From Treponema sp. (GTDB taxonomy: Bacteria; Spirochaetota; Spirochaetia; Treponematales; Treponemataceae), in NCBI GenBank assembly GCA_022510925.1, contig JAFLSO010000003.1, positions 28,159-92,158 on the forward strand: a stretch of 64,000 nt of DNA, read 5' to 3'. Each line of letters opens with the position of its first letter. The stretch's first letter is position 1. Below the pieces are notes generated by a model. The model searched no databases, had not been told where the DNA came from, and was given only the letters and a program-made list of their open reading frames with translations. Of this stretch, positions 54,467 through 56,093 are shown piece after piece. The position numbers were made by a program, and so were the translations under genes.

Positions 54467-54532
54467 CGTGCACGCTTTATCGCGGAGAATTTCTTGCAGG
54501 ATGCCGTATGCTACAACCAGGTGCGCGGTATA
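54467..54532 (+). pseudogene. Orphan internal fragment of deoD (about codons 24-45), a diverged copy of 56247-56312
   Basis: It reads [21 protein letters not shown]. Identity to the intact gene is 57/62 nt over 54470-54531 vs 56250-56311. It has no start codon or promoter. Confidence 0.92.
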
Positions 54533-54558
54533 GACAGACTTGATATAATCTTAAAAAA

Positions 54559-54590
54559 TTGACAAGAAGAATTTAAAGATATATTATAAT
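54559..54590 (+). promoter_or_regulatory. Islet sigma70 promoter
   Basis: TTGACA (54559-64)-N17-TATTAT (54582-87), with an overlapping TATAAT (54585-90). AAGGA SD before ATG 54620. Confidence 0.7.
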
Positions 54591-54619
54591 TTACTAACAA
54601 ATCATATAAGGATGTCTAA

Positions 54620-55186
54620 ATGTTTATGAGAAAAAGTGGCTTTGTATTTATATTATGCATTCTGTTTGTTTGGGCAGTGTCCTGCGTGGGTGAAAAATAT
54701 TTAAGACCGTATACTCCTGGTGTTTATTGTGACGAAGAAGCATTCAATGATCACAAGAATTTGTGGGATGGAAGCAGCGTAAAAAATTATACTTATACGC
54801 TCTGTTATGACAGTTTCCCACCGCAAAACTATACTGTTGCTGTAACCGTAAGCGATGGGAGTGTTTCTGAATGGGTTTTAAAAAAGTATTCTGGGAAAGA
54901 GGAGATAACAGAGGAAGAGAAAAAGGAATTTGAGTCTTTCTTGGAGGATAATAAAGATTTTCTGCTGATAGAAAGTGTATATGAGTTATTTTCTGCTTGT
55001 ATTTCGGAGGCATATAACAAATATACGGAATATTCGGATTGTTATTATTCAAGTTTTGATTTTTCCTTTAGTGAAGAAGTACCTTTTATTTCTTACTGCA
55101 AGAATACTTCTTTGTTGATGAAAGAAGATGTGGATGGTAACGGTGGATATGTTGAGATACAAATTAAGGATTTTAAACCGCAATAA
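54620..55186 (+). CDS. Islet lipoprotein (DUF6174-like, tentative)
   Basis: Lipobox WAVSC. The segment WDGSSVKNYTYTL...VTVSDGSV resembles DUF6174 lipoproteins (from recall). AT-rich codon usage. Confidence 0.7.
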   Translation: MFMRKSGFVFILCILFVWAVSCVGEKYLRPYTPGVYCDEEAFNDHKNLWDGSSVKNYTYTLCYDSFPPQNYTVAVTVSDGSVSEWVLKKYSGKEEITEEEKKEFESFLEDNKDFLLIESVYELFSACISEAYNKYTEYSDCYYSSFDFSFSEEVPFISYCKNTSLLMKEDVDGNGGYVEIQIKDFKPQ

Positions 55187-56059
55187 GTTTATAATAGCCG
55201 TGTTATTAAGTATATGTGTTGCGTCAAGAATATATGCCGTGGCGTTTACTTCTGTTGGTAGTATAGGAATCCAGAATGCTACTGTATGTGAAGAACTTAA
55301 CAGTAAGTATTCATCTTTAAGCAGACTTAATTGGTGTATACCGCTAAGTATAAGTTTGGGGTTAAATGAGGAACTGCTAATCTCAGGTTTTGTTTCTTGT
55401 GTAAGTATAAACACATCACTTCCTGGTAAACTGGGAACAATGATAGATTGTGATTATTATTTGTCAGGTGTTGTATCTCAGTATTCTAGCCATTCAGCTC
55501 ATATTGATACTGATTGTAGTTTTTGTATAGATTTAGTTTTAATGATATTTCTATTATTCCTTTTATTTCTGGGAAATATCAGCGCAGAAAATATTCCGCA
55601 TGGGGAGGGTATGTGCAAATTCCTTCTGGGGGACAAAATAAGACAGAAAACGATGAGACACAGAATATAGTCGGTAATGTAATAAGTTACGAGCAACAGG
55701 TTATGTTTCTGGCTTTGAAATTGAATGTTGAATATAATATTAGCAGAACCATGTCGGTTTTAGGAATTTTAAAATATAGCCCATATATTTATGCAAATTG
55801 TATAGATACGCATCATGTCAGAAATAAACAATTTATTGATAAAATGAATGGTGGTTTTTGTGTTGGAACTGAATTGGAATTTCGATATAAGGCAATAGGT
55901 ATAATCATATCATATGAATATCTTAAGAGTTCATCAAATGCAAAGACTCATATAGGTGATGTAGGTATAACAGAATCTTCAAATGCATTAGTTTCTGGAT
56001 ATGTTCCTGGAATTAAATCTAGTATATGGTTTGTGGGCTGCATGTATAAATTTAATTAG
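55149..56059 (+). pseudogene. Omptin-family (OmpT/Pla-like) outer-membrane protease, split by a frameshift near 55520-55536
   Basis: Track ORFs 55128..55670 and 55523..56059 are two halves of one barrel. Signal peptide, SRLNW, MIDCDY (D-x-D), SSH, ISYEQ, KYSPY..CIDTH (D-x-H) and a terminal MYKF all parallel OmpT. Confidence 0.72.
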
Positions 56060-56093
56060 AACAAAATAGTTTTATACATAGACAGGCGGTTGT

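Follow-up and report, generated by a model that had tools for sequence, protein, structure and literature searches.

The junction between the chromate transporter gene chrA2 and the purine nucleoside phosphorylase gene deoD in a Treponema sp. genome (assembly GCA_022510925.1, contig JAFLSO010000003.1) carries a block of low GC (guanine plus cytosine) content with two surface-protein genes, one for a lipoprotein and one for an omptin-type protease. How did this block come to lie there, and is it still at work? The locus was analysed within a stretch of 64,000 nucleotides, called the window below, to which all positions refer. An earlier reading made from the letters alone (the sequence-only reading) had proposed a portable cassette of a protease and its partner, inserted with an 8-bp target duplication or through an 8-bp recombination core. 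Comparison of strains indicates that positions 54476-56141 probably represent an islet that was acquired once, fairly recently, by illegitimate recombination and that is now decaying. The islet is ordinary apart from its uncharacterised lipoprotein, and its omptin belongs, as a divergent representative, to an established protease family.

Filled and empty alleles of the chrA-deoD junction

Alleles of the same species were retrieved by exact-protein look-ups of ChrA2 and DeoD. The empty allele was found in six contigs from six samples (L050, L053, L054, L063, L064 and L065). The filled allele was found in six as well, namely the window, L015 and L052, plus L057, L067 and L068, which show the left joint. 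The block is strain-variable, being present in six samples and absent from six, which upholds the earlier claim that it was horizontally acquired.

In the empty alleles only 75 nt separate chrA2 from deoD. The spacer reads TGA, CGTTTTTGCCAGCGTGCGCGC, GGAGCACATAAACTCTTG and TGGAAAATTCGCGCGG, followed further on by TACAAT and ATG; the joint itself runs from the chrA TGA to GCGCGC, then GGAGCACATAAACTCTTG, then TGGAAAATTCGC and on to deoD. In the filled form, 18 bp of this spacer are replaced by window positions 54476-56141. This segment of 1,666 bp consists, in order, of a patch copied from deoD, a left repeat, the low-GC body, a right repeat and a tail of 54 nt. The true insert is therefore larger than the extent of 54530-56085 first assigned to it. 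Neither the deoD patch nor the 54-nt tail was present in any of the six empty alleles, and the 18 bp of the empty site had no match in the filled allele with up to 3 mismatches allowed. At the joints, short microhomologies were observed: the GCGCGC that ends the left native spacer is also found in deoD codons 25-26, and CAT is shared by the patch and the repeat.

The repeats that bound the body, ATAGACAG or in longer form CATAGACAGGC, were found in none of the six empty alleles, where the nearest likeness is ACATAAAC. Since all six lack ATAGACAG, the repeat is no duplication of the sampled target. The proposed 8-bp target duplication, for which a single ATAGACAG at the empty site had been predicted, is thereby contradicted.

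The composition of the block sets it apart from its surroundings. Over intervals of 200 nt, the GC content was 29-38% inside the block and 54-63% outside, and the body (54540-56076) has 32.2% GC against 57.8% for each 1-kb flank. A drop had been reported before and is real, at a level nearer 30-35% than the 25-30% then given. The block is single in its genome, with no second copy found there. A DNA search of 40 relatives gave no copy of the block either, and the nearest deoD among them was just 74% identical. The closest DNA relative is a locus in a metagenome-assembled genome (MAG) of Treponema sp., at 68% nucleotide identity.

These joints would be explained if the islet had entered the 75-bp chrA-deoD spacer by microhomology-mediated illegitimate recombination, replacing the 18 bp. 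The recipient would have been a 54%-GC gut Treponema-like species and the donor a treponeme of lower GC content. Filler DNA at the joints would account for three pieces: 56 nt copied from codons of the nearby deoD, 8-11 nt that repeat the right end of the islet itself, and a tail in which a short piece of native spacer recurs. Neither transposition nor site-specific integration would be required for such an entry.

Age and spread of the islet

Between filled strains, the insert has diverged by 0.42-0.54%, against 1.5-1.8% for the flanks (Fisher p 1e-3 to 3e-5). An insert less diverged than its flanks is younger than the strain backbones and points to movement between them by homologous recombination. 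Across the flanks, filled and empty strains lie at similar distances from one another (1.3-1.8%); the single-nucleotide polymorphisms (SNPs) there form a mosaic, and none of the haplotypes goes with the insert. This strongly mosaic pattern indicates frequent homologous recombination in the population. Beside the insert, neither a tract of elevated divergence nor a linked haplotype was found, which would be the mark of an import from a diverged donor. After its entry, homologous recombination within the flanking DNA would thus have carried the islet from strain to strain, and it would now segregate as a presence/absence polymorphism.

When window positions 52800-57900 were compared with L015, L052, L050, L053 and L054, groups of two to four linked changes were also seen, clustered within a few nucleotides.

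Inactivation of the omptin gene

The omptin-family gene (55149-56059) is a pseudogene. Its reading frame is split into two parts, 55149-55670 and 55523-56059, and the PF01278 match lies solely on the second (45.6 bits, cut-off 22.6). Relative to L015 and L052, same-species strains that are 98.5% identical overall, the window lacks 13 nt at about 55530, corresponding to one unit of an imperfect 13-nt tandem repeat. L015 and L052 instead carry one more G in a G-run near 55625, and in L052 a stop codon near 55384 interrupts the frame as well. The frame is thus broken in every filled strain examined, and the differing lesions in the window and its sister strains indicate that the gene was inactivated at least two times independently. 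Phase variation at the G5/G6 run was considered but found no support, as the tract is short and the window and L052, two of the three filled strains, bear a further lesion.

The codons of the catalytic pairs are still found in the window, D-x-D at 55446 and 55452 (MIDCDYY) and D-x-H at 55805 and 55811 (CIDTHH). Intact homologues occur in L014 (P0003, 301 amino acids, 47% identity) and in L041 (306 amino acids, up to 56% identity; PF01278 at 48.7 bits). The equivalent motifs of P0003 align with D84/D86 and D206/H208 of Pla. The ten-stranded barrel fold was assessed on the intact L041 relative and not on the broken gene of the window. Its AlphaFold2 (AF2) model, with a predicted local distance difference test (pLDDT) score of 75.5, is an omptin barrel, and the top Foldseek matches were Pla (2x55) and OmpT (1i78), with an E-value of 6e-18 and template modelling (TM) scores of 0.72-0.81.

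The window's own genome, a 92%-complete assembly, gave no C10 cysteine peptidase gene, no other omptin and no match to LpxC (PF03331). Inactivated at least twice and with no C10 gene in this assembly, the module appears to be decaying and not working as a protease system. Of the proposed portable cassette of a protease and its partner, the acquisition and the recurrence of the gene pair elsewhere can be retained; its protease is dead in every filled strain examined. The 38-nt overlap described between the lipoprotein gene and the omptin gene holds if the latter starts at ATG 55149, although what was taken for one omptin gene is split into two frames.

Terminal direct repeat and deoD patch

ATAGACAG is present at 54530 and 56078, at both ends of the body, as the sequence-only reading had observed, but the 8-mer alone is within chance: a shared 8-mer or longer arose in about 10% of border-zone shuffles. 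The window holds eight occurrences where 1.1 were expected from dinucleotide shuffles. The further copies (7613, 13580, 19960, 34948, 52719 and 62551) lie in ordinary high-GC coding sequence and read ATA-GAC-AGx; the excess is a codon or word-usage bias and no recombination signal. Genome-wide, ATAGACAG was counted 121 times, about twice the mean 8-mer count. In the count at GC-shift borders that the sequence-only reading had proposed, none of the other 119 copies lay at such a border, and no ATAGACAG was found at the borders of homologous islands in other genomes.

The repeat is longer in the sister strains. In L015 and L052 it extends to 11 nt, CATAGACAGGC, a length that shuffles reproduce with a probability of about 0.0005. 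The repeat search and strain comparison placed the left copy of the window at 54529-54539, where it reads TATAGACAGAC with two edge substitutions; the right copy, at 56077-56087, is CATAGACAGGC. Given the 11-nt form in the sister strains, the terminal repeat is real and has been eroded in the window.

The left copy abuts an orphan copy of deoD codons 27-45 (54476-54531, 56 nt), the filler patch, with which it overlaps by CAT. Together with the adjoining microhomology, positions 54470-54531 form a 62-nt direct repeat of 56250-56311 (deoD codons 25-45) at 92% identity. The earlier statement that the terminal repeat is not deoD sequence thus has to be qualified, as its left copy overlaps this 62-nt copy. 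The patch shows five mismatches, all at synonymous third positions. Three of these are clustered and common to all filled strains, and no strain contig examined has them in its functional deoD allele.

Gene layout of the islet and its flanks

All features lie on the forward strand. The left host flank is formed by chrA2 (53876-54454; Pfam PF02417, E-value 2e-40), followed by the native spacer with GCGCGC at its end (54455-54475), which the window has in common with the empty alleles L050, L053 and L054. Within the islet, a promoter TTGACA-17-TATTAT (54559-54587) matches 11 of 12 consensus positions, and an AAGGA Shine-Dalgarno sequence precedes the ATG of the lipoprotein gene at 54620. This gene (54620-55186) encodes 188 amino acids with a lipobox cysteine at position 22, matches PF19671 and is intact in all filled strains. 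The tail (56088-56141) contains a terminator-like hairpin, GCGAAT-GAAA-ATTCGC, at 56094-56109; positions 56100-56109 are a 10-nt copy of the native GAAAATTCGC at 56144-56153. Beyond the tail, the native deoD promoter region (56142-56177), TGGAAA-17-TACAAT with a TG extension, is shared with the empty alleles, and the deoD gene of congeners is preceded by comparable extended -10 elements. The right host flank, deoD (56178-56879; PF01048, E-value 6.8e-38), is intact and encodes 233 amino acids as in relatives.

The near-consensus promoter with its Shine-Dalgarno sequence and the GAAA-loop hairpin beyond the right end were thus described correctly by the sequence-only reading, as was the self-contained nature of a block with its own promoter and hairpin. 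The absence of a mobility gene was confirmed too: the open reading frame (ORF) list holds no integrase, transposase or recombinase ORF in the block, and the flanking genes are chrA and deoD. No terminal inverted repeats were found at the block ends in the repeat search. A circular or rolling-circle unit with terminal redundancy was rejected; there is no replication gene, and the sequence past the right repeat is unlike the continuation of the left end.

The chrA-deoD spacer seems to be a recurrent insertion spot. At the chrA-deoD junction of G023, another species of the genus (L017, G023:C4 2919-4730), a gene for a methyl-accepting chemotaxis protein of 603 amino acids was found, at native GC content. 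In the closest sampled species (G009, locus L002), six tandem copies of a 14-nt unit, TTCAAAACTTGCAG, lie about 130 nt upstream of deoD, directly before the deoD promoter.

The lipoprotein

The lipoprotein matched PF19671 (DUF6174) with 27.6 bits (cut-off 23.8) over residues 42-111 only, and 15 of 19 relatives matched the same family. DUF6174 has no known function, and no paper mentioning it was found. Homologues at 35-47% identity all bear a signal peptide ending in a conserved cysteine, and more than 90% of the family retain the cysteine that follows the signal peptide. The family is rare, with 48 clusters at an E-value of 1e-3 or lower among 1.84 billion representative proteins; word-based protein searches gave almost no matches. 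Between strains, four non-synonymous changes and one synonymous change were counted, which gives no sign of purifying selection on the lipoprotein in this host.

An AF2 model from a 7-sequence alignment (pLDDT 83.7, predicted TM score (pTM) 0.76) consists of two repeats of a helix and a three-stranded meander (alpha-beta3), with the helices at residues 39-50 and 98-137. Foldseek against the PDB gave nothing significant (best E-value 0.02, TM 0.24), and a fold-based function was therefore dropped. The Pfam Lipocalin profile scored below threshold against the lipoprotein (E-value 0.037). A Spi-like, propeptide-related lipoprotein was also rejected, as hhalign against the C10 N-terminal region matched the signal peptide only. 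In L058 (3489-3872) a half-length paralogue of 127 amino acids, with the N-terminal alpha-beta3 unit only, is located between the C10 gene and the full-length lipoprotein gene. Such a paralogue fits a two-repeat architecture that arose by duplication.

Distribution of the gene pair and the protease cluster

Related loci were searched with a 6-sequence lipoprotein alignment, which returned few loci. They belong to MAGs of Treponema sp., Spirochaetaceae and Treponemataceae, one of them from water-deer rectum. L014 has a C10 gene, the lipoprotein gene and the omptin gene in that order, the last two overlapping by 23 nt. In L041 the lipoprotein gene is followed by the omptin gene with a 17-nt overlap, and in L045 it overlaps an omptin fragment. 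The pair, looked for in other genomes as had been proposed, is thus found with overlapping frames in at least three further treponeme loci. L043 holds fragments of both genes, and in L040/L046 the C10 gene and the lipoprotein gene are followed by four small genes and then the omptin gene. A C10 gene followed by the lipoprotein gene was found in L029/L042, L047, L048, L058, L059 and L060, and L061/L062 have the lipoprotein gene with neither protease as a neighbour. A C10 gene lies directly upstream in eight of the 12 loci with a visible upstream region; an omptin gene lies downstream in six of 10 loci, adjacent in five and nearby in one. The lipoprotein-omptin pair thus recurs in overlapping form but is not exclusive, and the upstream link with C10 is the more consistent one.

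L014 carries, at 1700-6930, a 5.5-kb island of low GC content (25-33%) in a genome of 43-46% GC, with two HTH_3 regulators besides the C10, lipoprotein and intact omptin genes. This island is a larger version of the islet of the window.

Omptins (PF01278) were found in 152 of 200 other genomes of the genus, often in one to three copies, and in 89 of 98 high-quality genomes, with G000 among those counted. The lipoprotein family was found in nine of the 200, mostly as weak matches, and the C10 peptidase in eight. Many omptin loci of the genus are in genomes of 32-42% GC, and the congeners with homologous genes have 26-42% GC. Omptins are unexpectedly widespread in the genus, and the genome of the window gives no LpxC match; a literature search for omptin and Treponema found no paper on the subject.

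As judged from these loci, the islet would carry an operon of two translationally coupled genes, one for a lipoprotein anchored in the outer membrane and one for an aspartyl protease of the omptin type in the same membrane. Donor-like genomes would have this operon as part of a cluster for surface proteases, in which the C10 cysteine peptidase gene comes first, then the lipoprotein gene and last the omptin gene. Gene order, translational coupling and the precedents of potempins (PMC9890683), staphostatins and Bfi (PMC2873492) suggest that the lipoprotein would most likely be an outer-membrane-tethered partner of the adjacent protease or proteases, with a restraining inhibitor favoured over some other assisting role. 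It is possible, if still tentative, that it stands for a new class of outer-membrane-anchored partner or inhibitor which controls C10 and omptin, surface proteases with no relation to each other, in gut spirochaetes free of lipopolysaccharide (LPS).

Weighing of alternative explanations

The repeats suggest another origin, in which only the low-GC body (about 1,540 bp) is mobile, as a non-autonomous cassette. It would have entered either with duplication of 8-11 bp of the target or through a core of 11 bp, CATAGACAGGC, with recombination enzymes supplied in trans; the target would be a longer spacer allele already holding the deoD patch and the hairpin tail. Identical 11-nt repeats do bound the body exactly in L015 and L052, at the low shuffle probability given above, and the hairpin could then be understood as the native terminator of chrA. 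Moreover, no model makes the sampled empty allele the direct precursor, as a further 110 nt of non-cassette DNA are missing from it. This origin is nevertheless considered improbable, because none of the six empty alleles shows the long spacer and the body comes without inverted repeats, mobility gene or second genome copy. A transposase or integrase is missing beside the block as well as in it, ATAGACAG is found in none of the empty alleles and, in its other copies, neither at a GC border nor at homologous island borders, and an extra, unexplained earlier rearrangement is required. Far less probable still is an islet ancestral to the species, with the empty alleles produced by deletion. About half of the sampled strains carry the islet, and the star-like flank phylogeny leaves the polarity not obvious; against this, the filled allele has no counterpart of the 18 bp in the empty ones, the insert shows a third of the divergence of the flanks, and its GC content is 26 points under that of the host with no amelioration. 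In the distant congener G019, chrA and deoD lie 20 bp apart without the insert. Finally, the genome is a MAG of 82 contigs and several short contigs break at the left joint, as might be expected of an assembly chimera. The same joints recur, however, in three independently assembled contigs of 35-118 kb from different samples and in three Logan contigs, with strain-specific SNPs and indels, and the chance of a chimera is practically nil.

As to the role of the lipoprotein, it may be tied functionally to the C10 peptidase only, as an inhibitor or maturation factor, in which case the adjacency to the omptin is incidental operon packing and the gene in the window is a functionless leftover. The upstream position of C10 in most loci agrees with this, as do the genus matches of the lipoprotein beside protease genes (G121, the strongest, and G059, much weaker), both of which adjoin C10. 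There is also precedent in Spi, the staphostatins and Bfi, which are encoded beside their cognate cysteine proteases (PMC2873492). On the other hand, four independent loci with just 35-55% identity show an overlap of 17-38 nt between the lipoprotein and omptin frames, and an overlap kept across four such diverged loci points to long-maintained translational coupling. No C10 gene is seen in the visible upstream regions of L041, the window and L045, which in L041 and L045 are short or cut by the contig end. A tie to C10 only is accordingly regarded as doubtful, with about the weight of a minority view.

Several observations weigh against the favoured account of a single capture by illegitimate recombination and of a protease partner as cargo. 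The donor sequence was not found, so the foreign part of the insert, with or without the tail, is delimited by inference. The three clustered synonymous differences in the patch are unexpected from plain copying of the resident deoD and need an unsampled deoD allele as template. The 11-nt repeat is improbable by chance, and its explanation, as templated filler or as a pre-existing feature of the donor, is ad hoc. Most omptins of the genus have no such lipoprotein as a neighbour. The suggested role of inhibitor or partner draws on gene order, and the predicted fold matches no known inhibitor.

Implications

The locus is a small, well-documented case of a population that gained and then lost foreign genes, with both alleles at hand and legible junctions. 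The carrier strains are older than their insert, and a cargo gene was knocked out independently in different strains. Two leads follow. One is the common occurrence of omptin-type proteases in a gut genus akin to Treponema that apparently has no LPS, the cofactor of enterobacterial omptins; the other is the genetic link of an uncharacterised lipoprotein family with two kinds of protease, C10 and omptin. If the lipoprotein is an inhibitor or cofactor, it would be a new scaffold for the self-protection theme of potempins and staphostatins.

Comparison with known systems

The islet differs from transposons, insertion sequences and miniature inverted-repeat transposable elements in having no target duplication at the empty site, no inverted repeats, no transposase and no multiple copies. 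It also differs from integrative elements and integron cassettes, as there is no nearby integrase and no attachment core that recurs at other sites. Capture of foreign DNA by illegitimate recombination, including its homology-facilitated form, with microhomology and filler is described in naturally transformable bacteria (see also PMC6382021). The islet resembles such events in its short, GC-rich microhomologies at the joints, the small deletion in the recipient, the templated patches and the lack of mobility genes. An 11-nt terminal repeat is no standard outcome of such capture, however, and the mechanism is read from one pair of junctions.

The omptin belongs with OmpT, Pla, PgtE and IcsP/SopA (PF01278, MEROPS A26) by its Pfam match, by the D-x-D and D-x-H pairs and by the tall beta-barrel model of the L041 relative, although sequence identity to the solved omptins is just 13-16%. 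Enterobacterial omptins require LPS for activity, whereas the present host is of spirochaete type with no LpxC match. The copy in the window is moreover a pseudogene that follows an overlapping lipoprotein gene, and enterobacterial omptin loci have no such gene.

The potempin operons of Tannerella forsythia, which pair these proteins with KLIKK peptidases (PMC9890683), differ in the kind of partner. Potempins are beta-barrels of 98-132 residues with an OB (oligonucleotide/oligosaccharide-binding) fold or eight strands (PMC9890683). The lipoprotein of the window has about 165 residues when mature, a predicted alpha+beta structure with no fold match and hence no such barrel, and its peptidases are omptin and C10. 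Common to both systems are the lipoprotein signal, the small outer-membrane lipoprotein gene directly upstream of and co-oriented with the gene of a secreted or surface peptidase, and the location in a variable region; protection of the cell's own surface, the role proposed for potempins, may by analogy apply here.

The Bfi/Bfp loci of Bacteroides fragilis join a C10 protease with a staphostatin-like lipoprotein inhibitor and are spread on mobile elements (PMC2873492). The lipoprotein of the window shows neither a lipocalin-like nor a staphostatin-like fold and, by profile, no homology to propeptides of the kind seen in Spi, and the islet has no C10 gene. What the two have in common is a C10 gene adjoining a co-oriented small lipoprotein gene in DNA that moves horizontally among gut anaerobes, and the gene order of the Bfi/Bfp loci is shared by L014, L040, L047, L048 and L058-L060.

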